Under the pieces are notes generated by a model that had not been told where the DNA came from, did not search any database, and worked only from the letters and a program-made list of their open reading frames with translations. A stretch of 64,000 nt of DNA from a bacterium (lineage in GTDB: Bacteria > JAJVIF01): assembly GCA_022072165.1 (NCBI GenBank), contig JAJVIF010000001.1:1258598-1322597 (forward strand), in the 5' to 3' direction. The translations under genes were made by a program, and so were the position numbers. Positions 5,170 to 62,083 of the stretch are shown here, one piece after another; position 1 is the first letter of the stretch, and every line of letters starts with the position of its first letter.

Positions 5170-7146
5170 CTACTCCTGGTCCTCCTGCTGTTCGGGTTCC
5201 CCCGACTCATCCCCCTCGCTTTTGGGCTCGCGTTCCTCATCAGTGGATGCTGGCTCCCCGGACTCGGGCTTCTTCGCTTCTTCCTCGGCAGCGCTCCCCG
5301 AAGCCGGAACGTCCTTTGACTCACCCGCTACTGCGCCTGCCGAGCCTTCCGCTGCTGGGGCTTCCGGTGCTTCTTCCGCAACGTTGGGATCCCGCAGCGT
5401 ATGCGCACTTTCGCCGGGCAGGGGACTTAAGGTGACACCTCCCTCGATGTCGCTCGGCTTTTGATCATCGGTGTTCACGATCAGTGCACTTTCGACATGC
5501 CCATACGCCTCGAACACATCGCTGGAAAGATGCAGGATCCCCAGGTCCGCCAGCACCATCTGCTTGTCGCGTCGACGCATCTGCACTTCGCCGGTGAGTG
5601 TCAGCTGGTCGCTGCCCTTCTCGTAACTGATGGCGTCGGCCCGGCTCCACTGGTGGGGCTGCCGCATCCGGACATTCCCCTCCGCTTCGAGATCTTCGGT
5701 GTCCAGGCGTACCACCACGCGCTCGGCCCAGCCTTCTGCTGGACGACGCGCGTCTTCTTTGACCTTCTCGTCCTCATCGGGCTCGATGACCTCATAGGTG
5801 AAGAGCCAGTCGCCACTCGTCTGCTGCCCCCAGACTGCGCCTTCAGCGATCAGCACCTGGCCTCCATACTCGCTTGGTGGAATCGCTTCGAGGTCTGTGG
5901 CTTCGGCCGAAGGGTTCCCCTCCTCATCCACAAACGCCCCCGGCTGGAACGTGATGCCCTGTTCCCGGACCTGCTCCGGTGTGAGATGCACCGTTTCCTG
6001 GCCCACCAGCATGATGGCTGGCGGGGCGTCGGCGGGGTCCTCCCACACGCGGGGGGAGTCATCCAGGATGACTTTGGCCGCCTTCGCTTCTTTATCGGCC
6101 TGTTTCCAGTGGACCGCCCCATCGAAGTGGGTCAGCTTCCGGTGCTCCTCATGTAGCAGCTTGTCGCAGGTGAGCGTACTGGCCACTGCCAGCAGTGCTT
6201 TGAGGAGCTTAGAGTCTCTCTTTTCCACCAGATCGTGGGTGTAGAGCCATTGGCCATCGACCTGCCAGAGTTCCACGGCCCCATCCATGACCAGTTGCTC
6301 ATCGGGAGTTTTAACGTAGTGAATATCCCGGGCTTTGGCGGTCCGCCCTTCCTGGACGATGGTCGCGACTCCGGGAGTCTCCGGCTCGACCCACAGATGG
6401 AACTCTTTCGTCCCCCACCAGTAGTGCAGGTTGTCCCCGGTGAGGGTGGTCTCCCGCTCCCGGAGGGCGTTTTCCAGTTTTTGACGTCGCGAGGGCTTCG
6501 CCGGCAGGGGCTTCGGTTGCTTGGCATACACCAGGGCTTTGACCGCCCCAACAGCGGTCATTTTCTTCACGTCATCGGAATACTCCAGGGTCAGGTCGAG
6601 CGTGTTCAACACGCCATCCTTGCTCTCGACCTCTACCCCCCCCTCGCCCCAGAACATCGCGACTTCATGCTTTTCATCCAGGAATCCCTGAGCCGCCCGG
6701 ACAATGGTGTCTTCGTAAGTAACCACGACATTCCCTTCGAGGGTCACCAGTTCCTCAACCCGGTCCTGGATGATCAGGTCAGCCTGGATGTCGGCGAACT
6801 TCGTCCCTGGTCGCGCCTGGATCGTGACATTGGGAGGCGGCGGCAGGGGCCCGGGCATGGCTGAAGGGTCGAAGAAGATTTCAGGATCCAGCGATGGGAG
6901 GTCGCTCAGATTGGGGAGCGGCGGACCTGCGATCCCCTCCCGGGACTCTTGATACGTGATCGCCGGGGGGGTGTACGGCGGCGGCACCGTCTGATCAGGC
7001 GTCACTTCCGCCTCCACCTCTGGAGTGGTTTCGTCTTGCTCCTCCGATTCCAGCGGCTCAATGAGCCCCTGACCATAAGCCGCTCCCAGCGGCAGATGGA
7101 GGGCCAGGCAGAGGAGACTCAGCGACAGGGGGAGGCGACGCATCAC
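5170..7146 (-). CDS. Large secreted OstA/LptA-like domain protein with an acidic C-terminal tail (658 aa)
   Basis: Signal peptide. LptA-like beta-jellyroll pattern (ADLIIQDRVEELVTLEGNVVVTYEDTIVRAAQGF...). C-terminal E/D/K-rich tail. 4-nt overlap with the upstream gene. Confidence 0.45.
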   Translation of the reverse strand: MMRRLPLSLSLLCLALHLPLGAAYGQGLIEPLESEEQDETTPEVEAEVTPDQTVPPPYTPPAITYQESREGIAGPPLPNLSDLPSLDPEIFFDPSAMPGPLPPPPNVTIQARPGTKFADIQADLIIQDRVEELVTLEGNVVVTYEDTIVRAAQGFLDEKHEVAMFWGEGGVEVESKDGVLNTLDLTLEYSDDVKKMTAVGAVKALVYAKQPKPLPAKPSRRQKLENALRERETTLTGDNLHYWWGTKEFHLWVEPETPGVATIVQEGRTAKARDIHYVKTPDEQLVMDGAVELWQVDGQWLYTHDLVEKRDSKLLKALLAVASTLTCDKLLHEEHRKLTHFDGAVHWKQADKEAKAAKVILDDSPRVWEDPADAPPAIMLVGQETVHLTPEQVREQGITFQPGAFVDEEGNPSAEATDLEAIPPSEYGGQVLIAEGAVWGQQTSGDWLFTYEVIEPDEDEKVKEDARRPAEGWAERVVVRLDTEDLEAEGNVRMRQPHQWSRADAISYEKGSDQLTLTGEVQMRRRDKQMVLADLGILHLSSDVFEAYGHVESALIVNTDDQKPSDIEGGVTLSPLPGESAHTLRDPNVAEEAPEAPAAEGSAGAVAGESKDVPASGSAAEEEAKKPESGEPASTDEEREPKSEGDESGEPEQQEDQE

Positions 7147-8873
7147 TCCTCCTCCCGGGCTTCATCGATCTTGCGGGCGTACTTCTCCGGCATCTCGATG
7201 GTCACTTTACGCGCCTGGTAGACTTCGTACCGCCGGACATCGAGGAACAGCCGCAGTTCATCGGCATCGATCCGCTCCCCCTTGGTGTTGGAGAAGTCGA
7301 CGTTTCCTTTGAGGGTCATCCATTCATCCCGATCGTGATACTCCCCGTATTCCGCCCAGGCCCGCTGGTCCTTCTGGACGACCTTGACCTGCCCGACACA
7401 GTAGAGGTATCCCGGCTCGGTGTAGGACATCGCCGCATCACAGTAGATGGTCGTCGCTTTCCGGGCATCCTCCCGGGCGCGTTCCTCTTCGACATCATCC
7501 AGCATCCCCGCTTTGGCCATCCAGTCGCCGGACGCCTGATGAATCACGACCTCGCCATCGGCTTCCATCACGCCGATTTCGTCGTGATTGATGATGTACC
7601 TGGCGGTCAGCCGCTTGTCCTTTTGGACCGCTTCCACGCCTCCCCAGGCTTCCACCAGTCCCTGCTTCCACCAGACCCGCATCTGATCCCCATAGAGGCT
7701 GGTGGTTTCCTTCGCGATGGCCCGCGCCGCCTTCTTGGCGTCCTTTTTCACCCGGTCTTCCAGCGACTCGGCATAAAACAGGACATCCTGGCGGGGCTCC
7801 AGGCGCTTGGCCTTCATGTCGATGTCCAGCAAATCGGCAAAGAGTCGCTTGTTCTTTTGCCAGGCGAAGACCTGCCGCTCGCGACGTTCAATCAGAGGCT
7901 GCGGAATCAGGGGGCCATAGAAGCGATCGATTTCCTCAGCGGATTTCTCCTGCCCTGCCAGGTACTCTTCGACCGCCTCCAGCTCCACCATCAGCGGGTT
8001 GCGATTTTTGTTCTCCGGCCGCAGGAGCCGCTGACTCGCGGGCTGGAACGCCCCGATCCGCCAGCGACGCAGCGCGGTGGCGGGGACATAGGGGTAGCAG
8101 GTCGCCTGGCGGGTGGTCTTGTCGTAGTAGACATACTCTGCGGCCACCCAGAGCCCTGCTTTGTCGTCGTCTTCGCCCGGTTTGGCGTCTTCAGGGTCCA
8201 GAATCCCTTCACGGGTCAGCAGATTCGGACGCTCGATTCCCCGCAGATACATCCGGACCGACCCGATGAACTCCAGGTGCGTGAGATCCCGGTCAGCGTA
8301 GAGGGAGTCCGCGATGATGTGATTCTCCTCAATCCGCATATCGACTGCGCCTGGACAGCGCAGTTCCTCGGTGTTTTCGTACCACGTCAGGTGGTTTGTC
8401 AGGAGGCGGGTGCTCCCCTCCCGGTCAATGAGCGACACGTTGTCATAGAGATGCAGCACCTTCACACGATTCTCAAATGCTGCCCGGTCCGCCTGTCCCG
8501 TGAGGTTAATCTGCCCATCCTTGAAGATGTGGAGCTGCTGCAGCGACTCCAGGCGGTTTTCCTGCAGTTCTCCGAACTTCACGGCCTTCACCGAGAAGAC
8601 TTCCCACGTTTTGCCCTTGTCGTCGTAGCCCGCAGCCCGAAGCCGCTCCACCTCGCTGACATCCGTCCGGTCTTCAGTGAAGACTGTTTGCAACTGCTCC
8701 CGGGAGCGGACCGTCGAGAGCCAGATCATCCAGGTCAGACTCCCCAAAATCAGAAACGCCACCAGCCCATCCCGGAGACCAACCAGCCATGGATACCGCC
8801 GCAACAGATCGACCGGCCCGTCATCAGCGGGCGGTTCGATCAGCGGAATCACATGGCGCTGGGTCTCTTCCAT
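7143..8873 (-). CDS. Membrane-anchored LptC/OstA-like protein (576 aa)
   Basis: Single N-terminal TM (LVAFLILGSLTWMIWL) followed by OstA-like strands (VKVLHLYDNVSLIDREG...). Translationally coupled to 5170..7146. Confidence 0.4.
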   Translation of the reverse strand: MEETQRHVIPLIEPPADDGPVDLLRRYPWLVGLRDGLVAFLILGSLTWMIWLSTVRSREQLQTVFTEDRTDVSEVERLRAAGYDDKGKTWEVFSVKAVKFGELQENRLESLQQLHIFKDGQINLTGQADRAAFENRVKVLHLYDNVSLIDREGSTRLLTNHLTWYENTEELRCPGAVDMRIEENHIIADSLYADRDLTHLEFIGSVRMYLRGIERPNLLTREGILDPEDAKPGEDDDKAGLWVAAEYVYYDKTTRQATCYPYVPATALRRWRIGAFQPASQRLLRPENKNRNPLMVELEAVEEYLAGQEKSAEEIDRFYGPLIPQPLIERRERQVFAWQKNKRLFADLLDIDMKAKRLEPRQDVLFYAESLEDRVKKDAKKAARAIAKETTSLYGDQMRVWWKQGLVEAWGGVEAVQKDKRLTARYIINHDEIGVMEADGEVVIHQASGDWMAKAGMLDDVEEERAREDARKATTIYCDAAMSYTEPGYLYCVGQVKVVQKDQRAWAEYGEYHDRDEWMTLKGNVDFSNTKGERIDADELRLFLDVRRYEVYQARKVTIEMPEKYARKIDEAREEE

Positions 8874-9092: not shown

Positions 9093-9431
9093 CTAGGCGG
9101 CGTAGCTCGCCATCGCCTGCTCTTCGGTGTCGTAAATCTGGAACACCTTATTCAGCCGGGTGAGCTGGAAGATGTTCTTGACCTCATCCTGAGGACCCCA
9201 CATCCGCAAGTCGCCATTCTGGCGGGTCGCGAGTTTGAGGCCACTCACGAGCACCCCAAGGCCAGCGGAGTCGAGATAGGAGATGTCAGACAGGTTCACC
9301 AGGACGCGGTGATAGCCGGAGTTGATCTTCTCCATGAGGCGTTCTTTGAGGTCGGGAGCCGCCTTCGCATCGAGCTCGCCCTTGATATCGAAGATCAGGA
9401 CGGTTTCGTGCTCACGGGTAGCGATGTCCAT
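9093..9431 (-). CDS. STAS-domain anti-sigma-factor antagonist (SpoIIAA/RsbV-like)
   Basis: MDIATREHETVLIFDIKGELDAKAAPDLKE...LSDISYLDSAGLGVLV, with the conserved phospho-Ser context DSAGLG. Confidence 0.75.
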   Translation of the reverse strand: MDIATREHETVLIFDIKGELDAKAAPDLKERLMEKINSGYHRVLVNLSDISYLDSAGLGVLVSGLKLATRQNGDLRMWGPQDEVKNIFQLTRLNKVFQIYDTEEQAMASYAA

Positions 9432-9481
9432 ACGTACGAGTCCTCCTTGCAGGGTCCCTGACAGCACACAGCAGGCCAGCG

Positions 9482-10502: not shown

Positions 10503-12464
10503 CTAAGACTCCATTACTGCCGCCGACGTTGAACCCTGACGGGGGGGCAGGAGCGGCGCTGCCAGGTCTGGCAGGTACTTGGTCAACACGATGTGATTCG
10601 TGCCGGCCCCAAACTCCACCTGGTCCATCATCTGGCAGGTCAAAAAAATGCCCCGACCGCCATTTTCCTGCAAATGTTCGGTGGCCCGGGGGTCCTTCAA
10701 CGCCAGCGGGTCATAGCCGAGCCCCTGATCCTGGATGCTTAGGCGCAGACACCCCGGCTCCAGCAGGAGCTGGACCGCTATCGGGCGGCTGGCATCCCCC
10801 TGATGCCCGTGCCGGAAGGCGTTGGTCAGGACCTCATCGAGAGCCAGTCTGACCTGATACTGGATATGGTCAGAAATCCCGCGCGACGCCAGCCGCATCC
10901 GGAGGGTGTCCGCGAACAGCCCGAAGTCGGTGGGATAGAGCAGGCGCTCCTCCCGGACACCAATCGTGCAGCGGAGCAGCCATCCCCCCGCCCCACCAAG
11001 CTCCCCGACCACCTGTCGCAGGACATCCCAGTGCTGATGCGGAAAGGCCTGGGGGAGCCCCTGTAACTGATCGCGCACTGATTCGGCACTGCCGGGCTCG
11101 CCTGACGGGAGAATGCAGAAGCCCTCTCCTGGCAGCGCTTCCTGCTGCCAGACCTGCAGCACAGGACAACCGTGGGCGAGGTAGAGGGTCCGGTCGGGTA
11201 CCAGCGGCTGCCAGCTGCGACGCCGATGGGTCCAGGCGGAGAGGCCGACCGGGCCGAGTCCCGCGCATTCCATCGTTCGCCAGTCCGCTGAGAGGCGACC
11301 GGCGAGAATCCACCCCGGAAAGCCATCGGCCCGGGGCAACAGACAGGTGGAAATGAGTTCCTGCAGGACCTCCGGCACGGGGGTCAGTGGCCCGAGTCCG
11401 GCCCGGAGTCGTTGCGCGACTTCCCGCACCCAGGGCATCCATTCCTCATGACCCGCAGGGACCCCCACATGAATAAAGCCCTGCACTCCGCCCCCTAGGG
11501 GCCACCAGTCCTGCACCAGCGAGGTACCGGTGGTCACCGGCAACGCCTGGATGGTCCAGGGACCGGTCCAGAGCGATGGCGCGAGGGTTTGCTCCAGCGC
11601 TGGCGGTCCGGCCTGCATGAACGGCACGAGTTGTGAACTCGCCAGGTCCGCGCGCATGACGTCCTGGAAGAGGCATTCCACTAAAAGCCCCCCCCGCTCC
11701 AGCAGCCGACCACTCAGGATGACCGAAATGGCGGTGTCTCCGCGGCGATACTCCGCCCCCCGGCGGAACGGCTGCGGCTGCCCGAGCATCCCCTGCAGGA
11801 GACTGCGGGTGGCGTGGTCGAAGGGGAGTGTCAGCAGGGAGCGTCCACAGATGGTCAGCGGCTCCAGCTGGAGTCCCTCAGCCGCACTGGGATTGATGTG
11901 CCTGACAGTCAGATCGGCGTCACACAGGAGGAGTCCATGCTGGAGGGCTTCCGCCAGTGACTCCCAGGTGCGCAGATGGAGCGCACTCGGCACAGGGGCC
12001 GGTCGCGACACCATCGCCTCCTGCGCCGCCCGCAGCCGCAGATCCAGCGGATGGCCGCTCGCGGCGAGGGTGTGACCTGTGTGCGCGAGGTAGAGGACCA
12101 GGAGCTGTGTCGGGTCCCGGTCAGAGTCGAGACGGAGGATGAGGAGTTGCGGTTGCTCCGCACGCCGTCCCGGGAGGGCGAATCGACGCGGCGTGGCGGG
12201 CATCGGGAGCGGCCAAGTGAAGCGACGATCGTGGCTCGCCCGGGTCCAGAACTCCGGCAACCATTGCTCAATGAGGTCGGGGCTCAGGCCGCTTTGCGCG
12301 AAGAAGCGGTCATCGGGCAGGGGAATGAGGTCCGTGCCGAAGCCGCTCCGGGAAAGGAGCAGTCCGGTCTCGGCCTCGACTGCCGCGAGGAGTTGCACCA
12401 CCCGCGCTGGGGAGAGTCCCAACGCACCGGACAGGGGTCCGGCGGTCCCTGGCTCAGAGGTCAT
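10503..12464 (-). CDS. Multidomain partner-switching regulator: PAS domain, central degenerate region, and C-terminal HATPase_c anti-sigma-type Ser kinase
   Basis: C-terminal GHKL motifs (VLTNAFRHGH ... DQGLGYD ... GGRGIFL). PAS-like block LLLCDADLTVRHINPSAAEGL. Start chosen at the ATG at 12462-12464; the track ORF extends to 12671. Confidence 0.55.
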   Translation of the reverse strand: MTSEPGTAGPLSGALGLSPARVVQLLAAVEAETGLLLSRSGFGTDLIPLPDDRFFAQSGLSPDLIEQWLPEFWTRASHDRRFTWPLPMPATPRRFALPGRRAEQPQLLILRLDSDRDPTQLLVLYLAHTGHTLAASGHPLDLRLRAAQEAMVSRPAPVPSALHLRTWESLAEALQHGLLLCDADLTVRHINPSAAEGLQLEPLTICGRSLLTLPFDHATRSLLQGMLGQPQPFRRGAEYRRGDTAISVILSGRLLERGGLLVECLFQDVMRADLASSQLVPFMQAGPPALEQTLAPSLWTGPWTIQALPVTTGTSLVQDWWPLGGGVQGFIHVGVPAGHEEWMPWVREVAQRLRAGLGPLTPVPEVLQELISTCLLPRADGFPGWILAGRLSADWRTMECAGLGPVGLSAWTHRRRSWQPLVPDRTLYLAHGCPVLQVWQQEALPGEGFCILPSGEPGSAESVRDQLQGLPQAFPHQHWDVLRQVVGELGGAGGWLLRCTIGVREERLLYPTDFGLFADTLRMRLASRGISDHIQYQVRLALDEVLTNAFRHGHQGDASRPIAVQLLLEPGCLRLSIQDQGLGYDPLALKDPRATEHLQENGGRGIFLTCQMMDQVEFGAGTNHIVLTKYLPDLAAPLLPPRQGSTSAAVMES

Positions 12465-12677
12465 CCGTGTCCTGCTGGCGAAGCGCATGCGCCTGTGTGG
12501 GATGCGGTACGGCGGTAGCTGGTGGGGATACGCGCCCCAGTATAAGTTCGATGAGGCCCAGTGTGCATTCTTTTGACACACCCGGCCGAGGTCGCTGCCA
12601 CCCGGAGAGTCAGTGCAAGAACTGCGCCCAAACTGGACGTCGCTGCTGGCGGCTGGGGTCTGCTGCCGCAAAGAGAC

Positions 12678-13340
12678 TTAAAGCAGATAAAACGCCATCG
12701 CAGCGGCTCCCAGGGGGATGAGCAGATTGTCCGTACCACGCAGCGCGACGGCTTCCAGCAGGGTCGACCCCACGGCAATGACAGTCGCGGCGATGGTCCG
12801 GTCCAGGAGGGGCTGCCCGGGGAGTTCCAGGGACAGGACCGTCATAGTCGCGAGGAACGCGAAGAGGTACATCGCGAAGCTCCCCTCCAGGCTCCGCTCT
12901 TCACCAAAGACCCGGTACTTCAGACGCCCATAGCGACGTCCGATGATCGCTGCAAAGGCATCCCCCCAGGCGAGCACGAAGAGACCGATCATCGCCGGTG
13001 CCCGCTGGTCGGCGTCCCAGAAGGCCAGCAGCAGGATCACGAAACTGACAGGGAAGAGGATGGTCCCCAGATTGCCGGTCTCGGATTCCTCAATCGCCGC
13101 GAAGAACTTCAGCTTGTAGCTCGCGAAATTGATTCCGATGAACAGCGCTGGCAACACCACCGCCCAGCGGACATCCGTAAAGAGATGAAAGGTCGGCCAG
13201 ATCCAGGTCCCGATGGCGATGTGCACGAACTTCCGGGTGAAGTCGCCGGGGAGTTTGAGCCACGCCCGGACCCCTTCCGCGATGGTCAGCACCAGCGCGA
13301 CATAGCCCAGCGACAGGAGAAAGGCGACCGGGTTCGACAT
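12678..13340 (-). CDS. Polyprenol/phytol kinase (VTE5/dolichol-kinase-like, CTP-dependent) family membrane protein
   Basis: Multi-TM protein with the TRKFVHI motif and a WGDAFAAIIGRRYG block. Start taken at Met MSNPVAFLL; the track uses a TTG at 13394. Confidence 0.55.
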   Translation of the reverse strand: MSNPVAFLLSLGYVALVLTIAEGVRAWLKLPGDFTRKFVHIAIGTWIWPTFHLFTDVRWAVVLPALFIGINFASYKLKFFAAIEESETGNLGTILFPVSFVILLLAFWDADQRAPAMIGLFVLAWGDAFAAIIGRRYGRLKYRVFGEERSLEGSFAMYLFAFLATMTVLSLELPGQPLLDRTIAATVIAVGSTLLEAVALRGTDNLLIPLGAAAMAFYLL

Positions 13341-13393
13341 GACTGCTGGATAGTACCCCCCCTCGCCCTGCCACCCGGCTATACTCCGTCGCA

Positions 13394-13942
13394 ATGACCG
13401 CAGGACTCCCCCTCAATCGCATCCTGATAGTGCAGGCGGACCTGCTCAAAATCGCGGCGAGTGCCATTGTGAATGCTGCCAACACCGAACTCTGGCTGGG
13501 GGGTGGAGTCGCGGGGGCGATTGCTGCTGCGGGCGGACCGCAGATCGAAGCGGATGCCATGACCCAGGGTCCTATCGCACCCGGTGCCGCTGTGATCACC
13601 CGGAGCGGCCACCTGGGCAAGGAGGGCATCCTCTACGTCATCCATGCCGCCACCATGGAACCGGGCAGCCCCTCCTCCCCCGAACTCATCGCCAAAGCGA
13701 CCTTCAGCGCTCTTGAGCTGGCGACCCAGAAACGACTCCCCAGCGTCGCCTTCCCCGCACTGGGCACTGGTGTGGGGGGGGTCGCATTGCCCGATTGCGC
13801 CATGGCAATGCTCACCACCATGCAGAGCTATCTGAGCAGCAACGCCTACCCCAAGCTCGTACACATCGCCTGCTGGAATCAGGATGCACTACAGGCCTTT
13901 CGGGCAATCGCACAGAGTCTGACCGCTGGACCTCCATCATGA
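13394..13942 (+). CDS. Macro-domain protein (ADP-ribose / O-acetyl-ADP-ribose processing)
   Basis: IVQADLLKIAASAIVNAANTELWLGGGVAGAI and a PALGTGVGG-type phosphate-binding loop. Classic macro-domain signatures. Confidence 0.8.
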   Translation: MTAGLPLNRILIVQADLLKIAASAIVNAANTELWLGGGVAGAIAAAGGPQIEADAMTQGPIAPGAAVITRSGHLGKEGILYVIHAATMEPGSPSSPELIAKATFSALELATQKRLPSVAFPALGTGVGGVALPDCAMAMLTTMQSYLSSNAYPKLVHIACWNQDALQAFRAIAQSLTAGPPS

Positions 13943-16608
13943 GCCGCTGGCGCTGGCTCCTGCCGATCCTGCTGCTGGCTCTCCTGGTCCTGCCCGCCAT
14001 CGGTCAGCCGGGGGGGGAATCAGCCGAAGACGTGGCTGATGTTGCGGAGTCGGAAGTGGCAGATCCTGCGCCGGAAATCCTGGACCCCAATATTCAGATC
14101 CAGGTGAATGAAGACCTGTTGGGGCTCATCAGAGCTGGACAGACTTTTCCGATCGTCGTGGAGCTCACCACCCTCGAAAAACCGATCAATGGGATGCTCG
14201 AGATCCATCTGCCGGGCGAGCCCATGATGCAGTTGCCGTTGAGCCTCGCGCCTCCTGCGACGCACCGGCAAGTCTTTATCGGACGGCAGCAACCGCAGGC
14301 CATGAACTACAACCCGATGAGCGGTACCAGTGGTTCCGCTCCACCTCGCCTGACGATCATCCTGCGGGCAGGCAACCGTATCCTGGTGCGACGTCAGGTG
14401 GAGCTGAGCGTCAATCAGGGGGGCGTGCAGTGGGGCGAGCTGACCAGCCAGATTCCGCTGCTACAAGTCGCCGCCGGCGTGCTGCAGGTCGAGACGCCTC
14501 TCAATGGCATGACTCCCGAACGGCTGATGGAAGAACTGACCCGGGAGCGCTACGACCCCAGTGCCAGTAATCCGGCATCTGTGCCGACCGCCAGCTTGCC
14601 GATGAGCCAGGACCCGCCATTGGTCCAGGGCTTGCCGGCCGGCGGCTTCGCCATCCCCGGGGCCTATGGCGGTTTCGATCTGCTCTATCTGCATGGGGTC
14701 GACCCACGCCTCTGGTCGGCAGAGCATCAGGCGACCCTACAGGATTGGGTACTGCAGGGGGGCGTCCTCCTGCTGCATCCCGGGTCCGCGGTGGACTGGA
14801 ACCCCTGGAGCCTGGTGGGACTGACGCCTGAGGGGCGGGTGCCCGCCAGTGAACGCCCGGTCGGGTCCATCGCCGCCCTGGGCGACTTTCTCAGCACGCC
14901 GACGCCGATCCCCAGTTTGCAAACCGAGCGCTACACCCTCCCCGCATCGATGCGTCCGCTGGTGCTGGCCGAGGATGGCGCGCCGCTCCTGGGCTGGCAA
15001 CCCTATGGCCGGGGCTGCATCGTGGCTTGTACTATTGACCTGCTCCATCCGGAGTTGCGGGGCTGGCCGGACCTCCCTGCGGTCCTTCAGTGGATGGCCG
15101 ACTGGGGCGCTTCCCACCGCCTCACGACCGACCAGTCCCCTGGCTTGCAGGCGGCGATGCTACTGGGGCAGTCCGGATACTCTCCCTACGGGTACTACCG
15201 AACCCCTCAACCCGGACCGTCGGCTGCACTCGCGCTGCCTGTCTTAGGCTACGCCACCACCTACCAGGCATCACACGGCATACGACCTGCGCAGTACTTT
15301 CTCGGCGCGTATCTCGTGTTGCTGATCGTGACACTGCCCCTGCTGCGCAGCCGCAGCTCCTGGCGTCCGCTGACCACCCTCTGGGGCGTGGCGATGCTTT
15401 CCAGTCTGATCATGAGTCCCATCATCCAGCCACAGCCGATCCAGTGGCGGGCGGGGTCGGTGCGGTTGGGCGGCCCGGAAATGGTGCGGCAGCAGCCGAC
15501 TGCCATCGAACTCTATGCCCACCGGGGGCAATACGACTCCCGATTCCAGTTGCCAGATGCTGTCACTGCCCCCCGGCCGATACCGGGGGGCATCAGGCTC
15601 GCGCCCCGAGTTGGTGAGTTTGGCGAGGGGCTGACCACCGCCCCCAATCAGTATCAACTGCGGCTCCAGTCTCCCTCCCGACTGGAGGCCCTGACCCTCC
15701 CGATCTGGATGCGCATGACCCTGGAGGATGTGAAGCCGCCAGTCGCCGGCACACCGGGGTTCACCGCCCAGCTGGTCTCCATAGGCGAAGCGCCGCCTGC
15801 CGTACAGATCGACATCACAGACCCCACATTCAAACCGAATGCGCTGTACGCGCTGGCGGGACAGGGACGGTCGCTGATTTCCTGCCGGGTGGCTCTCAAA
15901 GACGTGTTTGTCCCAAGCCAGACCTGGCCCCTTGAGTTAGAGCGCCAGGATCGCGGAAGCGTGGACCAGCCCGAAGCGGTGGACTATGACTCCCAACGCT
16001 ACTGGTGGGAGCATCAGACTCCCGCATGGTCGATCGCTTCCGGCAACACCGTGAGTACAGAACAGCGGAAGCGCCTCGAGTGGCTCAACAGCTATGCCAG
16101 CGCCTTCACGCCCTGGGTGACACATCTGGGAGGGCTGGTGGTAGTCCTGGCCAGGCTGCCGGACCCCGAGTCCGGGGAGTTGCCAGACATTCGCATCTGG
16201 TTGGATTCATCAGCCTCATCGGTCGCCAGTAGTAACCCATTGGTCCGTCTGGGCTGGTCGCATCAAGTGTTGTTGGAGACGGTCGGCTCGGCGCTTCAGC
16301 TCCGCATGGAACCGGGGGGCATCCTGATGTGGCACACCGAGTCCCCGATGGCAGACTCGGTGGTTCTGAGTCTGACGCTGAACGACGATCCTGCATCGGT
16401 CGTGCTCGAAGCCTGGCGACCAGCGAGTGGCTGGAGCATGGTCGCGCCTCTCCCGATCACCTACGAAGACCGGGCGCGCTTTCCGGTCGGGACCAGTGGG
16501 AGTGCTGAAGCCCCGACGCTCTATCGGATCCGGGCGCTCCGGCCAACACAAATCACAAACCTGCAGTTCACCGACCTTGGCTATCCCGCTTTGGACTCCC
16601 CCGAATGA
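13939..16608 (+). CDS. Large secreted/membrane hypothetical protein (889 aa), paralog of 17378..19804
   Basis: ATG at 13939 overlaps the macro-domain stop (ATGA). Signal peptide, then a mid-protein LQDWVLQGGVLLLHPG motif, two or more TM helices near aa 500-560, and a large C-terminal domain. Confidence 0.55.
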   Translation: MSRWRWLLPILLLALLVLPAIGQPGGESAEDVADVAESEVADPAPEILDPNIQIQVNEDLLGLIRAGQTFPIVVELTTLEKPINGMLEIHLPGEPMMQLPLSLAPPATHRQVFIGRQQPQAMNYNPMSGTSGSAPPRLTIILRAGNRILVRRQVELSVNQGGVQWGELTSQIPLLQVAAGVLQVETPLNGMTPERLMEELTRERYDPSASNPASVPTASLPMSQDPPLVQGLPAGGFAIPGAYGGFDLLYLHGVDPRLWSAEHQATLQDWVLQGGVLLLHPGSAVDWNPWSLVGLTPEGRVPASERPVGSIAALGDFLSTPTPIPSLQTERYTLPASMRPLVLAEDGAPLLGWQPYGRGCIVACTIDLLHPELRGWPDLPAVLQWMADWGASHRLTTDQSPGLQAAMLLGQSGYSPYGYYRTPQPGPSAALALPVLGYATTYQASHGIRPAQYFLGAYLVLLIVTLPLLRSRSSWRPLTTLWGVAMLSSLIMSPIIQPQPIQWRAGSVRLGGPEMVRQQPTAIELYAHRGQYDSRFQLPDAVTAPRPIPGGIRLAPRVGEFGEGLTTAPNQYQLRLQSPSRLEALTLPIWMRMTLEDVKPPVAGTPGFTAQLVSIGEAPPAVQIDITDPTFKPNALYALAGQGRSLISCRVALKDVFVPSQTWPLELERQDRGSVDQPEAVDYDSQRYWWEHQTPAWSIASGNTVSTEQRKRLEWLNSYASAFTPWVTHLGGLVVVLARLPDPESGELPDIRIWLDSSASSVASSNPLVRLGWSHQVLLETVGSALQLRMEPGGILMWHTESPMADSVVLSLTLNDDPASVVLEAWRPASGWSMVAPLPITYEDRARFPVGTSGSAEAPTLYRIRALRPTQITNLQFTDLGYPALDSPE

Positions 16609-17321
16609 ACCGGGCTGCTGCGACCCGACTCGACCAGGTGCTCGGTGATCCGGCGCTGAGCCTGCTGCTGGTGCTCTTTGTGCTGGTGGGCTACCTGATC
16701 GTCCGGGTCCCCTGGGTGGACATGCAGGACGCGACGCAGACCACTGGGCTGGACTGGATCATGCGCCCCGTGCTCATGCCTGATCAGCGATCAGGCGATG
16801 GCTCACTGACTGGCGCAGTTCTGCTCTTGCAGGGACTTATCTGCGGGATGCTCCTGCTGCTGCGGGGCGCCGCCTTGCAGCTGCCAGGGGACATCCCGAC
16901 TCGCGCGGGAACTCTTCAGCAGCGCGCCATGTCCGACCTGTGGCTCCTGATCGCGATCAGCCTCGGTCTGGGCTTGCTGCTCTTTCCGGTGGTCTGGGTC
17001 GGGCAGCCGGGCGACGCGGAGGCAGCCTGGCAACATTGGTGGCCTCTGCAAACGGCCCTGCTGGGTCAGGCCGCGACGCTGTCCTGCTGGGTCATTCTCT
17101 GGTACGCCCCTCGTCCCGCCCGATTGTTCCAGTACCTCGGTGCCTGGCTGGGGATGGTGGCCCTGACTGTTCTCTGGCTCCAGCAGGCCCTCCCTGAGAG
17201 CGGGGCCGGCGCGGACTGGCTGGTGCCGACTGTCGGATTGCCCCTCGCCCTGGGACTCGCCTGCTACCTGAAGTGGTCGCACTGGCAACTCTCGACTCCT
17301 TCGGAGTCCCGCCTGCCGTGA
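16605..17321 (+). CDS. Polytopic membrane protein, hypothetical
   Basis: ATGA overlap with the upstream gene and about 6 hydrophobic segments. Confidence 0.5.
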   Translation: MNRAAATRLDQVLGDPALSLLLVLFVLVGYLIVRVPWVDMQDATQTTGLDWIMRPVLMPDQRSGDGSLTGAVLLLQGLICGMLLLLRGAALQLPGDIPTRAGTLQQRAMSDLWLLIAISLGLGLLLFPVVWVGQPGDAEAAWQHWWPLQTALLGQAATLSCWVILWYAPRPARLFQYLGAWLGMVALTVLWLQQALPESGAGADWLVPTVGLPLALGLACYLKWSHWQLSTPSESRLP

Positions 17322-17377
17322 CCGATCACCCCTCCCCTGCCACGCCAGAGCGGAGCAGACCTTGGCATACTCTCAGG

Positions 17378-19804
17378 ATGCCGCGTTGTCTGACCGCACG
17401 ACTGCTGACGCTCTGCTTCCTCCTGTGCAGCAGCCTGTTGTTTGCGCCAGCCGTGCTGGCGCAGGGCGATGGCGCATCCGGGGTGGAAGAGACCGAAGCC
17501 ACCGCGGCGACCGATGCCAGTGGCGCGTTCCGGATGCAGGTGGAGGTCCCCTTCGGGACCGCCCGGCAGGAGAGCGTGAATCATCTGGTGGTCCTGCTGG
17601 AGAATGCCGGGCCCGATTTCTCCGGGACACTGATCCTGAGTACGGTGAGCTGGATTCCGCACACCCAGTATTTCCAGCAGGTCGAACTGGCTTCCGGCAC
17701 CACCAAGCGGTTCACTTTTAATGCCTTCGAAGGGACCCAGCCATCGTTCCAGGCGATCCTGCTCGACAGCCAGGGCAACGAAGTCTTGCGGCAACCGGTG
17801 ACGCCCTTCGCCAGCGCTTCCAGCGATGTGCAGATGGTGCAGTTGGGAGGGCATCGGTCGGACTTCGCCGCGCTTCAGGGCGACAGCCTGGCCCTGCGGA
17901 TGAGCATCGCGGATCTCATCGATGATGCGGGCGCGATCAAGAACAGCTTCGCCCTCTCCGCGATGCAGATGCAGGAGCCGGACATTCCGCTCCTCGCGTA
18001 CCGATACCTCCCGCCAGAAGCCCTCCCCTCGCAGTTGCTGGACCTGCTGGGGCTCAATCTCATCGCCATCGACCTGGGACAGTGGCAACGCCTGGCTCCC
18101 GCCCAGCAGGAGCTGCTCACCAGCTATGTCCGGTTCGGCGGACGCCTCCTCCTGTATCCAGCGCTGGATTATGGGTACCCCAATCAGACTCTGGAGCATA
18201 CTTTGCTGCCGGTGCCTCTGGAAGTCGGTTTCGACCCGGCAGCGCCGGCTGACTTAAGCGGGATGCTGGCACTCTTTCCGCAATGGCGCGGATCGCCTGA
18301 TCGTCCACTCCGCTTCCTGCGACCGAAATCCCCACCAGCGGAAGCTGAGCTACTCCTTTCCAGACTTTCCTTTCCTGGTGGTCGCACCCTCCTGCTGAGC
18401 CGCCCGGAGGGCTTCGGACGTGTCGCGCTGCTCACTATGCAACCAGCCCTCCTGAGTGATGGGGCGGGGGGCGACAAGTATCTGATGCAATTGCTGGACC
18501 GGACCGGGCTCCTGGAATCGAGCGGGGTCCAGTTCTATCGCTCCGGGACCGGAGGGTTCAGTATGGGGAGTGGCGCGGTACGTCCACGGGGACGTTTCTG
18601 GCGCGCCGCAACTCCCCGCTTCAATTTCTGGCTGGCGAACTACGCCCAGGCCATGAATCCCGGCAGCTTTCGCCCGTTTAGGGGAACGCAATCGACCTTC
18701 AGACTCACCGCAGTCCCCCTCGCTTTTCTGCAACAGGAAGGCTGGAAATTGCTGATCTGGGGGGTGCTGGTCGCGGGAGTAATGCAGCTGATCGTGACCG
18801 TGCGACGTCGCATACCCCTGGTCTGGCTCGCCCTGCCGCTGGCCGCTGCCCTCTTCGTGCTGACCTTCACCCCGGTCGCCGTACAGATCGAGACCCCGTA
18901 CCGCTACGAGGCCTGGAACATTCTCCGCTTCCCCGGGACCGGAAGTCAGGCGTTCCTCGCCTCAGCGTCCTGGGTAGCGAATCTCTCGCGCCACGGGACG
19001 CCGCAGGTCCTGAGCAGCACCCAGAGTGACTTCTTCTTCGATGAGTTTGTCTATCGCGATGACCCGCTGTTCCGGTCGGCGGTGCCGCAGGATTACCCGA
19101 CTGTCCAGCATCGCCAGGGCGCGACTCCGGCCATCGTGCAGCTGCAGCCGCATCTGCTCGGCGATCCCCGGCTCCTGCTGGGATGGGGTCCGGTCACCAC
19201 GGATGGCCAGCTCTCAGGCGTGATGCGAGTGAACGGTCCCGATCAGGGAGTCCAGCTGGTGCTGACCAATGACACCCCCTGGCCAGTCCGCGGAGGGCTC
19301 CTTCTGCTGGAGAGCGAGTATCTCTACATCGAAGGGGCGGCAGTTCCGGCGGTCCCGGCCGGTGACAGCATCACGATCACGCTTGATCCCAAAGCAGTGA
19401 CCTACCGGCTGGATCAGACCACCAAGCGGCACATGCCGACGCCCATCTTCGATTTGCCCATTCGTGATCTGCCGCAGATCCTGCGGGGCTGGGCGTATGA
19501 GCAGTCGCAGGTGCTGTATGAGGAGGTGCGGCTGCAACAGGACCTGGAGTTCACCAAACCCACTCCCGAGCACACCTTCCTGCCGACTGAAGCCCTGTTT
19601 GTCGGTGAGCTCGAGGGGGGCGTGTTGCCCCTGGAACTGGATGGCCGGACGCCCGAGGGGCGACGCTTCACGCTGGCGACCTGTCCGGTCCGGATCGAAT
19701 GGCATCCCGCGCTCGGATTACGTCAGCCTCCCTTCACCTGGGAGTACTACCCCGGAGGGGCAGCGACTGTCCTGGAGCGCTTTCCTGCAGAGCGTCGGGA
19801 GTAA
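17378..19804 (+). CDS. Large secreted/membrane hypothetical protein (808 aa), paralog of 13939..16608
   Basis: ATG at 17378 with a signal peptide (LLTLCFLLCSSLLFAPAVLA). LTSYVRFGGRLLLYPA motif analogous to the upstream paralog. TM helices near aa 470-520. Confidence 0.55.
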   Translation: MPRCLTARLLTLCFLLCSSLLFAPAVLAQGDGASGVEETEATAATDASGAFRMQVEVPFGTARQESVNHLVVLLENAGPDFSGTLILSTVSWIPHTQYFQQVELASGTTKRFTFNAFEGTQPSFQAILLDSQGNEVLRQPVTPFASASSDVQMVQLGGHRSDFAALQGDSLALRMSIADLIDDAGAIKNSFALSAMQMQEPDIPLLAYRYLPPEALPSQLLDLLGLNLIAIDLGQWQRLAPAQQELLTSYVRFGGRLLLYPALDYGYPNQTLEHTLLPVPLEVGFDPAAPADLSGMLALFPQWRGSPDRPLRFLRPKSPPAEAELLLSRLSFPGGRTLLLSRPEGFGRVALLTMQPALLSDGAGGDKYLMQLLDRTGLLESSGVQFYRSGTGGFSMGSGAVRPRGRFWRAATPRFNFWLANYAQAMNPGSFRPFRGTQSTFRLTAVPLAFLQQEGWKLLIWGVLVAGVMQLIVTVRRRIPLVWLALPLAAALFVLTFTPVAVQIETPYRYEAWNILRFPGTGSQAFLASASWVANLSRHGTPQVLSSTQSDFFFDEFVYRDDPLFRSAVPQDYPTVQHRQGATPAIVQLQPHLLGDPRLLLGWGPVTTDGQLSGVMRVNGPDQGVQLVLTNDTPWPVRGGLLLLESEYLYIEGAAVPAVPAGDSITITLDPKAVTYRLDQTTKRHMPTPIFDLPIRDLPQILRGWAYEQSQVLYEEVRLQQDLEFTKPTPEHTFLPTEALFVGELEGGVLPLELDGRTPEGRRFTLATCPVRIEWHPALGLRQPPFTWEYYPGGAATVLERFPAERRE

Positions 19805-19825: not shown

Positions 19826-19902
19826 TGGCGCGCCAGGCAGGACTCGAACCTGCGACCATCGGCTTAGAAGGCCGGTGCTCTATCCAACTGAGCTACTGGC
19901 GC
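19826..19902 (-). tRNA. tRNA-Arg (anticodon TCT)
   Basis: The reverse complement reads GCGCCAGTAGCTCAGTTGGATAGAGCACCGGCCTTCTAAGCCGATGGTCGCAGGTTCGAGTCCTGCCTGGCGCGCCA. Cloverleaf elements are present, the anticodon loop is CTTCTAA, and the T-loop is GGTTCGAGTCC. Coordinates are +/-1. Confidence 0.85.
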
Positions 19903-23128: not shown

Positions 23129-23375
23129 GTGATCCCGAAGAAACGTACAGCAGCAGGCTCACGGCATGATCCGTGCTTTGTCTGCCGGGGCCGATGTCTG
23201 AGTCTCCCCTCCGGAATCCGCTATTGATGCGGCTGAGCGGGCCATTTGTCACTTGTGAGAGTGACACCGCTCGCTACGGCTGCGCCCTCAGCCCGCCTGC
23301 TTCCGCAGAAAACGCCCAAACCGACTTTTCGTGAAAGAAGGCGCAAGGATCACGGAATCCCCCTCACCGCCGGTC

Positions 23376-25343
23376 ATGTCGCGTGCTCTGATCCGCTGGG
23401 GACTCCCCGGCGGCCTCCTGGCGCTCGCCTGCTGGATCATCGCGCTGCTGCCTCCGAGGGGCAGCGGCATCCTCGCGAGCCCGCCCTTCGCCCTGCCCCT
23501 CGACTCCGGGGGAGTCCTCCTCCAGCTACGGACCACAGTCCCGGAATTGCTCCTCGCGCTGGCGATCATCTCCCTCCTTGGCACTCTCATCGGACTGAGC
23601 GTCAGGATTCCTGACACTCCCTGGGAGCGTCACTCCTTCGCTGGCGGCGTCCTGACCCTGGCGGCGAGCAGTTTCGGGGTGCTGATCCTTATAGGTATGC
23701 AGCGGCATCTCACCCTGCATTCCAATGCGTACGACCTCGGCATCTTTACGCAGACCTTCGCGAATCTTGCGGCCGGACGCGGGCTGCAGTCGTCGATCCG
23801 CGGGCTGGATCACATGCTGGCGGATCATGCCCTCTTCACCTGGTGGGCCTTCGCACCCCTTTTTCGCCTGTGGCCCGATGCCCGGCTGCTCATCCTTCTG
23901 CAGGGACTGCTGCTAATGCTGGCCTGCTGGCCCCTCTGGTTACTGGCGCGTTCCCGGCTCTCGAGTGCCGGTGCTTCACTGGTGGTGCTGACCTATGCTG
24001 CCTCACCTATCCTGCACTGGTTCGGGCTCTTCGATGTTCACGAACATGCGCTGACCCCGGTCCTGGCGTTCGCCCTGGTCTGGTGCTGGGAGCAGCGCCA
24101 CTGGGGATGGGTCTGGGTTTGGGGACTGCTCTGGCTGGGGGTCAAAGAAGAAGTCGGCATCGTGTTATGCGCACTGGGACTGCTGCTGGCGTGGCGGGAC
24201 CCCGAGGGACGCGGGCACGGACTCGGTCTGGCGGTCGTGGCTTTCAGCTGGCTGCTGCTTTACACGCTGGTGATCCAGCCCGCGTTCCGGGCTGACCAGA
24301 CGTATTACTACGTCCATCGCTACGCCTGGCTGGGGGATTCGATGGGCGAGATCCTCCGGACCCTGCTGACTCGTCCGGATCGCTGGCTCCCCCGCTTCTT
24401 TGATCTGCGTCCCTGGTTCTTTGTGGGGCTCCTGCTCCTTCCACTGGCGTTGCTGCCACTGCGAGGCTGGCGCTGGTTGCTGGTGATGGTCCCGACGTTC
24501 TTCTACTCGGTTCTCTCCAACGAGCCGCTGCAAACCTCCATCTATGCCCAGTACACCGCGCCGTATGTGCCATTCCTGTTCATGGCGCTGCTCGAAGGAC
24601 TCGCGACTCCGGGTCCTGGCACCCTCACGGCCGACCGGGGAGCCGCACTGGCAGCGAGCCTGACGCTCGCGACCTCGCTGGTGTTCAGCCCCCTCCCGTG
24701 GGGACGCCCGGACATGCGGGTCGCCTGGCTCCGGGATCCCGTTGTTACCCCCGATCGACTGACGGAACTCCTGCGCTTAGCCCAGTCGGATTCCGCTATG
24801 CCTGCGCTGCTTTCCAGTCATCTGGTGCCTCATGTGGCGACCTTGCCCAACGTGCAGGTCGCGACCATGACCGCTCTGCAGAAGATGGCGCCATCACCCG
24901 GCAGCACCCCGTGGATCCTGTTCGACCCGGTCCGGATGAAGTCCGCCGAGGAGCGGGAAGCGATGGTCTGGCTCCACACGGACACCCTGCCAGATACGGC
25001 AGACGCGACTCCTGCCCCACGGCACCTGGAGCCTGGGGAAGTACAGATACACCTGACACCCCAGGGATGGGCGCTGACAGAGCCCCGGATCTCCGATGCG
25101 GCAGGGCCGCATCGGATGCTGGTGGGATGGCGAGGTCCCCTCACACGCCGGAATCTGTCGCATGTCATTCCGCTGGTGGAGATCGCGGGGATGCCGAGCT
25201 GGGTGGAAGCAGAGTTCCCCGGGGTCCCGCCCGACACGCTGGCGGTCGTCACGGTTCCCGGATCCTGGCGCCTCTCGCCTGAAGAATGGCTCCTGGATCA
25301 TTGGGATCTGTGGGCTCCCCCGCTGATCGCAGCGCCGCAGTAG
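23376..25343 (+). CDS. Polytopic membrane protein, DUF2079-like (putative glycosyl/arabinosyl-transferase fold)
   Basis: More than 10 TM segments. NAYDLGIFTQTF block with long extracytoplasmic loops. Start set at the Met at 23376. Confidence 0.45.
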   Translation: MSRALIRWGLPGGLLALACWIIALLPPRGSGILASPPFALPLDSGGVLLQLRTTVPELLLALAIISLLGTLIGLSVRIPDTPWERHSFAGGVLTLAASSFGVLILIGMQRHLTLHSNAYDLGIFTQTFANLAAGRGLQSSIRGLDHMLADHALFTWWAFAPLFRLWPDARLLILLQGLLLMLACWPLWLLARSRLSSAGASLVVLTYAASPILHWFGLFDVHEHALTPVLAFALVWCWEQRHWGWVWVWGLLWLGVKEEVGIVLCALGLLLAWRDPEGRGHGLGLAVVAFSWLLLYTLVIQPAFRADQTYYYVHRYAWLGDSMGEILRTLLTRPDRWLPRFFDLRPWFFVGLLLLPLALLPLRGWRWLLVMVPTFFYSVLSNEPLQTSIYAQYTAPYVPFLFMALLEGLATPGPGTLTADRGAALAASLTLATSLVFSPLPWGRPDMRVAWLRDPVVTPDRLTELLRLAQSDSAMPALLSSHLVPHVATLPNVQVATMTALQKMAPSPGSTPWILFDPVRMKSAEEREAMVWLHTDTLPDTADATPAPRHLEPGEVQIHLTPQGWALTEPRISDAAGPHRMLVGWRGPLTRRNLSHVIPLVEIAGMPSWVEAEFPGVPPDTLAVVTVPGSWRLSPEEWLLDHWDLWAPPLIAAPQ

Positions 25344-62000: not shown

Positions 62001-62083
62001 TCGCGGGGGATATCGACATCGACGTTTTTGAGGTTGTGCTGCCGCGCCCCCCGTACCGAAATGACCTGCTTACCCGGTGTCAT
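59012..62083 (-). CDS. uvrA: Excinuclease ABC subunit A with a Lys/Ala-rich C-terminal tail
   Basis: Two ABC ATPase modules ([20 protein letters not shown]) and zinc-finger Cys clusters. The last ~55 aa are [17 protein letters not shown]...APRKS. Confidence 0.95.

Follow-up and report, generated by a model that had tools for sequence, protein, structure and literature searches.

Why would a gene for a cytoplasmic macro domain stand at the head of an operon whose other products are directed to the cell envelope? The question is raised by a stretch of 64,000 nucleotides (nt) from a bacterium of the GTDB lineage JAJVIF01 (assembly GCA_022072165.1, contig JAJVIF010000001.1, positions 1,258,598 to 1,322,597), referred to here as the window, in which four open reading frames (ORFs) follow one another on the forward strand. 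They encode a macro protein of 182 amino acids (aa; 13394-13942), a large protein of 889 aa that we call Big1 (13939-16608), a polytopic transmembrane (TM) protein of 238 aa (16605-17321) and a second large protein, Big2, of 808 aa (17378-19804), in agreement with the sizes given by a first-pass annotation made from the sequence alone. That annotation had described all three junctions as overlaps or near-overlaps; this holds for macro/big1 and for big1/TM protein, each an ATGA overlap of 4 nt, but not for TM protein/big2, which are separated by a gap of 56 nt. Within the cassette no terminator-like site rises above chance, and its 3′ boundary is set by a tRNA-Arg(TCT) gene on the minus strand (19826-19902), convergent with big2 and 22 nt past its stop. 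The reading we favour, to which we give about an even chance, is that of a conserved, lineage-specific operon combining a duplicated GldG-like module, devoid of ATP-binding cassette (ABC) genes, with a novel membrane protein and a co-transcribed macro gene.

The first-pass annotation had made its proposal depend on conservation of the cassette, and the order macro - big1 - TM protein - big2 was found at five independent loci, namely the window, L001, L002, L005 and L006. It is seen on the contigs of L001 and L002, while the short contigs of L005 and L006 keep it as far as each reaches; a metagenome scan yielded only L086, a duplicate of the L002 lineage. Recurrence of the same cassette at four further independent loci indicates that the genes are real; Big1 is only 24-37% identical among them. 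The 4-nt overlap of macro and big1 is kept in all five. Relatives of the large proteins are few in a word-indexed search, and when 1.84 billion cluster representatives were scanned exhaustively by HMMER with a Big1 profile, the true family amounted to six clusters. The same profile matched nothing in the GTDB species-representative genomes, the source genome included, and many proteins of the window have no Pfam family. The source lineage looks poorly sampled, and the cassette belongs to a rare, unclassified bacterial lineage.

BLASTP detects no similarity between Big1 and Big2, and the paralogy first proposed for them from the sequence stands at the profile level only. There, hhalign of three-sequence profiles puts the GG motifs of the two proteins in register within a collinear alignment of residues 11-370 and 14-362, though only at a probability of 64% (E = 6.7e-5). 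The Big1 profile (A1) matches a 30-sequence profile of the distant family (A3) at 99.9% (E = 1.9e-32, 584 columns), and the Big2 profile (A2) matches it at 99.6% (E = 5.7e-25, 613 columns). Since both fit one family profile, we regard them as distant paralogs sharing one architecture. That family is represented in the exhaustive scan by about 50 distant proteins of ~800 aa, matched in the GG-motif region, which carry the Pfam domains DUF7408 (PF24157) and/or DUF4350 (PF14258). Scanned directly against Pfam, Big1 gives no hit and Big2 only GLMA_2nd at E = 0.13; among the relatives, P0002, a close one, matches DUF4350 at 1.8e-6, P0003 matches DUF7408 at 0.071 and P0007 matches DUF4350 at 0.0098. 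Profile comparison places Big1 and Big2 as very diverged members of this DUF7408/DUF4350 family of GATase1/GIFT fold and same architecture. With its Chloroflexota members they share the domain order over ~600 columns, the invariant WV..GG.L and G.G motifs, and a topology of signal peptide and TM hairpin.

A signal peptide, internal TM helices, a mid-protein GGxLLL-type motif and a GATase1/ThuA-like fold had all been read from the sequence of the two large proteins at the outset, and each of these features was recovered. By hydropathy, both have an N-terminal hydrophobic segment and an internal two-helix hairpin with a short basic loop between the helices, at residues 451-469 and 478-496 of Big1 and 457-475 and 479-497 of Big2 (18746-18868, plus strand). 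The motif is LQDWVLQGGVLLLHPG in Big1 (residues 267-282, nt 14737-14784) and LTSYVRFGGRLLLYPA in Big2 (residues 247-262, nt 18116-18163), and the two align with each other and with the sole invariant GG of the whole family. A structure model was made for Big1: AlphaFold gave nothing usable from three aligned sequences (pLDDT 38), and on a 125-sequence alignment, mostly of distant relatives, it reached pLDDT 78.3 and pTM 0.82. This model runs from a signal helix through a beta-sandwich (~45-170), an alpha/beta domain (~228-392; 14620-15114, plus strand) and juxtamembrane helices to the TM hairpin (residues ~449-492; 15283-15414, plus strand), with helices at 449-471 and 476-492 and the basic cytoplasmic loop RSRSSWRP, and then two beta-domains. 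The C-terminus is a jelly-roll beta-sandwich (~732-878; 16132-16572, plus strand). Profile match and hydropathy give Big2 a corresponding order of signal peptide, beta-sandwich, GATase1-like region with LTSYVRFGGRLLLYPA, TM hairpin and C-terminal domains. Nearly all of Big1 and Big2 lies outside the cytoplasmic membrane, anchored by the two-helix hairpin.

The alpha/beta domain of Big1, which holds both LQDWVLQGGVLLLHPG and a YGRG motif, is GATase1-like, of ThuA/GIFT type. Fold comparison scored 15.1 for STM3548 (2gk3) and for a Planctomyces GATase1-like protein (3rht), 14.2 for a ThuA-like protein (1t0b), 12.6 for the N-terminal GIFT domain of IFT52 (5fms) and 10.0 for OST48 (6s7o_G), and Foldseek concurs on the GATase1/ThuA/GIFT fold. 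The first three are small soluble single-domain proteins with 10-19% sequence identity, whereas in Big1 the domain is one module within an exported membrane protein type of 800-900 aa. GldG belongs to the GIFT domain members together with IFT52 and OST48. Across the 125 sequences only G274 and G275 of the GG motif and G359 of YGRG are invariant; the Cys-His-Glu triad of class I amidotransferases is not conserved among them, and Cys360 varies even within the six-member Big1 family. The missing triad argues that the domain is a non-catalytic module, probably serving in binding or as a scaffold. For the jelly-roll, Foldseek returned the carbohydrate-binding modules (CBMs) CBM29 and CBM86, the GnT-IVa lectin domain and APC10, at target TM-scores of 0.32-0.49, which is suggestive only of a carbohydrate- or galactose-binding-like module.

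What partners does this kind of protein have elsewhere? A scan of GTDB species genomes with a 10-sequence Chloroflexia subset (A5) gave 267 hits; the best 80 of these matches represent 79 distinct loci (L007-L085), all from Chloroflexota, which with L003 and L004 make 81 family loci. Nearly every one with downstream DNA follows the order DUF7408 - ABC - permease(s) - ~555-aa protein, in which ABC stands for an ABC ATPase, the ABC-2 permeases number one or two, and the last protein is conserved but has no Pfam family. The ABC gene is present in 71 of the 81, the other 10 apparently being truncated contigs, and a macro gene is absent from all 81 by gene-order analysis. At L003, L004 and L089 the DUF7408 gene is likewise followed by ABC ATPase, ABC-2 permease and a protein of 550-620 aa, and the operons of L004 and L089 run on into MoxR-DUF58-BatA genes. 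One further member, P0141, is an ABC ATPase fused to the DUF7408 protein, with an ABC-2 permease coming after it; two others, P0139 and P0137, have no ABC neighbours. The MoxR-DUF58-BatA/vWA ('Bat'-type) association with archaeal DUF4350 has been predicted to form a secretion or membrane-remodelling complex, and DUF4350 was already tied to GldG by HHpred (Makarova et al. 2015, PMC5898192). The literature searched contained no description of a DUF7408-headed ABC-2 operon, and nothing specific on the cassette accessions or on DUF7408.

Set beside these operons, which have one paralog each, the cassette has two, lacks the ABC ATPase, the ABC-2 permease and the ~555-aa fourth protein, and carries two extra genes, one for macro and one for a novel membrane protein of 238 aa. 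Big2 was considered as the counterpart of the ~555-aa protein and rejected. Neither an ABC transporter ATPase nor an ABC-2 permease gene is detectable in the operon or among the six-frame ORFs of the window. The sole ABC-type ATPase there is UvrA (1023 aa; 59012-62083, minus strand), which accounts for a weak ABC hit at these positions, and an ABC transporter at that site was rejected. The MoxR-DUF58-BatA association is also absent, phmmer searches of all window ORFs with the L004 and L089 proteins giving no MoxR, DUF58 or BatA/vWA hits. The GldG/ABC_transp_aux models of Pfam and NCBIfam hit neither the window proteins nor ten relatives, and the ABC partner that GldG has in the gliding-associated GldAFG transporter has no equivalent in the window. 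GldG also carries its TM anchors at the termini and has no central hairpin, unlike Big1 and Big2.

The hairpin itself has changed. Canonical family members carry a strongly conserved motif on its cytoplasmic face, Y..iGPxNY..LrR..R.E..AW.TiP (GPxNY..LRRxxRxExAWxTIP), which has been lost in both the Big1 and the Big2 lineages (alignment A6, Big1 residues ~445-500). The loop is the sole cytoplasm-facing part of the canonical protein; we infer that the motif is the site of contact with the ABC transporter and that its loss accompanies that of the ABC genes. The 238-aa protein shows 4 hydropathy peaks above threshold (~6 TM segments by eye) and a conserved N-terminal L(R/G)DP motif, matches no Pfam or NCBIfam family, and is present at five of the five loci, with 24-29% identity in the alignment and 29-34% in local alignments. 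A degenerate ABC-2 permease of GldF/NosY type was considered for it and rejected, as hhalign against canonical permeases gave a probability of 0.1-0.2% and Pfam no hit.

The first gene encodes a macro domain, as it had been read from the start, with a Pfam Macro score of 92.3 bits against a cut-off of 22 (E = 2.6e-26). Its motifs NAAN (27-30), GGGVAGAI (36-43) and GTGVGG (124-129) are all conserved in the orthologs, of which four are full-length and one is a C-terminal fragment. The catalytic Asp/His dyad of MacroD is missing, both positions being Ala (GGGVAGAIAAA). The Asp to Ala change is shared with Af1521 and TTHA0132, and Af1521 is active nonetheless (PMC5413906). NCBIfam models for ADP-ribose binding and O-acetyl-ADP-ribose deacetylase match below their equivalog cut-offs (105 bits against 246). 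The best solved relative is TTHA0132 (2dx6, E = 9e-27), followed by PARP14 macro 1 and the O-acetyl-ADP-ribose deacetylases of E. coli YmdB type, with DR_2288, MacroD1/2 and Af1521 lower. The protein has no signal peptide and is cytoplasmic. With NAAN, glycine-rich loops and Ala for the catalytic Asp, as in Af1521 and TTHA0132, it is predicted to be an ordinary housekeeping-type MacroD-like ADP-ribose binder or hydrolase, the activity being putative. We found no such gene in an exported GldG-like operon context in the literature searched.

Judged from its position and junctions, the macro gene opens the transcript and is translationally coupled to, and co-expressed with, the envelope genes. 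A TATACT hexamer resembling a -10 element lies 8 nt 5′ of its ATG (13380-13385, plus strand) and is invariant in the aligned intergenic DNA of four loci (the window, L001, L002 and L006), where macro is preceded by a divergent gene for a 220-aa protein (up220). The hexamer is the probable promoter of a leaderless or very-short-leader operon transcript that begins with macro. A similar hexamer, CATACT (within 17362-17377, plus strand), occurs in the 56-nt gap, 7 nt 5′ of the big2 ATG; it could be an internal leaderless-type promoter for big2. The genes of this unit have not changed at the same pace. Between the window and L001, identity is 73% for up220, 70% for macro and 62% for an LptC-like protein, against 45% for Big2, 34% for the TM protein and 32% for Big1. 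Between loci generally, macro is 70-73% identical and Big1 and the TM protein 29-37%, so that macro changes at a far lower rate than the other genes of the operon. Synteny is broken downstream of big2, where the window has the tRNA and L001 a DAHP-synthase-like gene, and an upstream block of the 220-aa membrane protein, a HATPase_c_2 protein, a STAS protein and the LptC-like protein is shared with L001; the short contig of L002 has room for no more of this block than the 220-aa gene. With synteny this broad among the genomes, linkage counts for less as evidence of function.

The surroundings fit an envelope setting, given the LptC/LptA-like proteins, the LysM-NlpC/P60 hydrolase, the DUF2079 protein and the divergent 220-aa membrane protein. 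The last of these (12678-13340, minus strand) is polytopic, lies 53 nt from macro, has no Pfam hit, shows 73-84% identity to its counterparts in L001 and L002, and has a TACCAT-like box just 5′ of its start on the minus strand. Its motif AWGDAFAAIIGRRYG may be akin to that of the phytol/dolichol-kinase (VTE5/SEC59/DGK1) family. Beyond it, a 722-aa protein with a C-terminal HATPase_c_2 domain of anti-sigma-kinase-like character (10503-12671, minus strand) and a STAS-domain protein (9093-9467, minus strand) look like a partner-switching regulatory pair. Further still (5170-8873, minus strand) are a 576-aa protein with LptC and LptA/OstA-like regions and a 658-aa protein with LptD_N-like repeats, and this lipopolysaccharide-transport-like pair indicates that the organism is a diderm whose Lpt components are fused in an unusual way. 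On the other side, just downstream of the cassette, lie a peptidoglycan hydrolase with four LysM repeats and NlpC/P60 (21617-23107, minus strand) and a 670-aa DUF2079 membrane protein (23331-25343, plus strand). GC content is even across the window (61-66%) and gives no sign of foreign DNA.

How, then, might the parts work together? Under the reading we favour, the operon core would be a duplicated derivative, without ABC genes, of the GldG-like auxiliary protein of ABC-2 exporter operons. Big1, Big2 and the 238-aa protein may form a hetero-oligomeric complex, anchored in the inner membrane and facing the periplasm, which would bind or organise an envelope polymer and would itself use no ATP. 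A glycan is the most likely ligand, in view of the envelope-related neighbours and of the jelly-roll, CBM-like in character, at the C-terminus of Big1. That macro is physically or mechanistically linked to these envelope proteins is less likely than simple co-regulation; the strict macro/big1 coupling argues for such a link, and the lineage restriction, the general synteny and the very different rates argue against it. Several points weigh against the picture as a whole. The window proteins assigned to the family fall, taken directly, below every Pfam and NCBIfam threshold, and the DUF7408/DUF4350 family is itself uncharacterised. Big1 is the sole protein modelled, from an alignment dominated by distant relatives, the CBM-like assignment comes from weak domain-level hits, and the complex is deduced from operon structure alone. 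The strict 4-nt macro-big1 coupling, kept despite a Big1 identity of 24-37%, could be a real functional link. Finally, the window is 64 kb of the genome, and genes for an ABC-2 transporter that serves as partner could lie outside it.

This last point opens on another account, in which Big1 and Big2 remain GldG-like accessories of an ABC-2 exporter encoded at a distance and, like the members in canonical operons, help to export a lipid or a surface polymer. The family is strongly and repeatedly linked to an ABC ATPase and an ABC-2 permease, gene fusion included, which speaks for it, and the contig from which 64 kb were examined extends over 1.88 Mb or more. Yet both paralogs have lost the hairpin motif, the canonical protein's only inside reach to a transporter. 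The 64 kb contain no ABC transporter gene, the membrane protein encoded between the paralogs is no ABC-2 permease, and other family members too lack ABC neighbours; we hold this account to be possible but rather unlikely. The same losses can be turned in favour of a sharpened form of the first-pass proposal, with macro as an integral cytoplasmic subunit that has replaced the ABC ATPase, docking on the 238-aa protein and coupling an ADP-ribose or NAD-derived signal, or de-ADP-ribosylation, to the periplasmic proteins. The ATPase is gone together with the cytoplasmic hairpin motif, macro leads the operon and shares 4 nt with big1 at all five loci although Big1 is only 24-37% identical, and a polytopic protein with a probably cytoplasmic L(R/G)DP motif is found only in this cassette. 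No macro gene accompanies any of the 79 Chloroflexota family loci, however, and the cassette genomes are syntenic well past the cassette (as in the upstream block of L001), so that the linkage may be inherited rather than selected. An identity of 70-73% for macro against 29-37% for Big1 and the TM protein is unlike that of tightly interacting partners, and the closest relatives of macro are ordinary stand-alone housekeeping-type proteins (TTHA0132, YmdB, DR_2288). We know of no energy-transducing activity of macro domains. Such a subunit therefore appears improbable to us, and its more explicit form, in which macro occupies the place of the ABC ATPase and a NAD+/ADP-ribose signal, or removal of ADP-ribosyl groups from the 238-aa protein or the hairpin loops, controls a periplasmic polymer scaffold, is more doubtful still. 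The least credible proposal is a conflict system, either anti-phage defence or a toxin-antitoxin of DarTG type, in which macro would undo toxic ADP-ribosylation. The match of the macro domain to DarG on which it draws is weak and confined to the domain level (PADLOC 2.3e-7; NCBIfam 2.5e-6, 27 bits against a cut-off of 250). There is no full-length DarG and no DarT, ADP-ribosyltransferase or sirtuin partner, the other three cassette proteins match no PADLOC model, macro is closest to housekeeping MacroD-like proteins, and the locus keeps its place among housekeeping envelope genes in a conserved chromosomal order and shows no compositional anomaly. With no partner gene and only a domain-level DarG match, we rejected this proposal as effectively refuted.

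The kinds of protein encoded here are already known, as Pfam DUFs and a macro domain. What is new is the ABC-2 operon context of DUF7408, documented over 81 family loci, and an ABC-less pair of paralogs with a lost hairpin motif, a novel 238-aa partner and coupling to macro. DUF7408/DUF4350/GldG-like proteins are widespread and uncharacterised, and can now be placed firmly in ABC-2 exporter operons. The lineage offers a natural comparison for the role of a GIFT-type domain without its transporter, and for asking if ADP-ribose metabolism can be tied to envelope biogenesis at all. Should macro be merely co-transcribed, the locus would add only modestly to a family without an assigned function; if it does control this GIFT-domain envelope system, it would be the first link of its kind between ADP-ribose signalling and envelope assembly.

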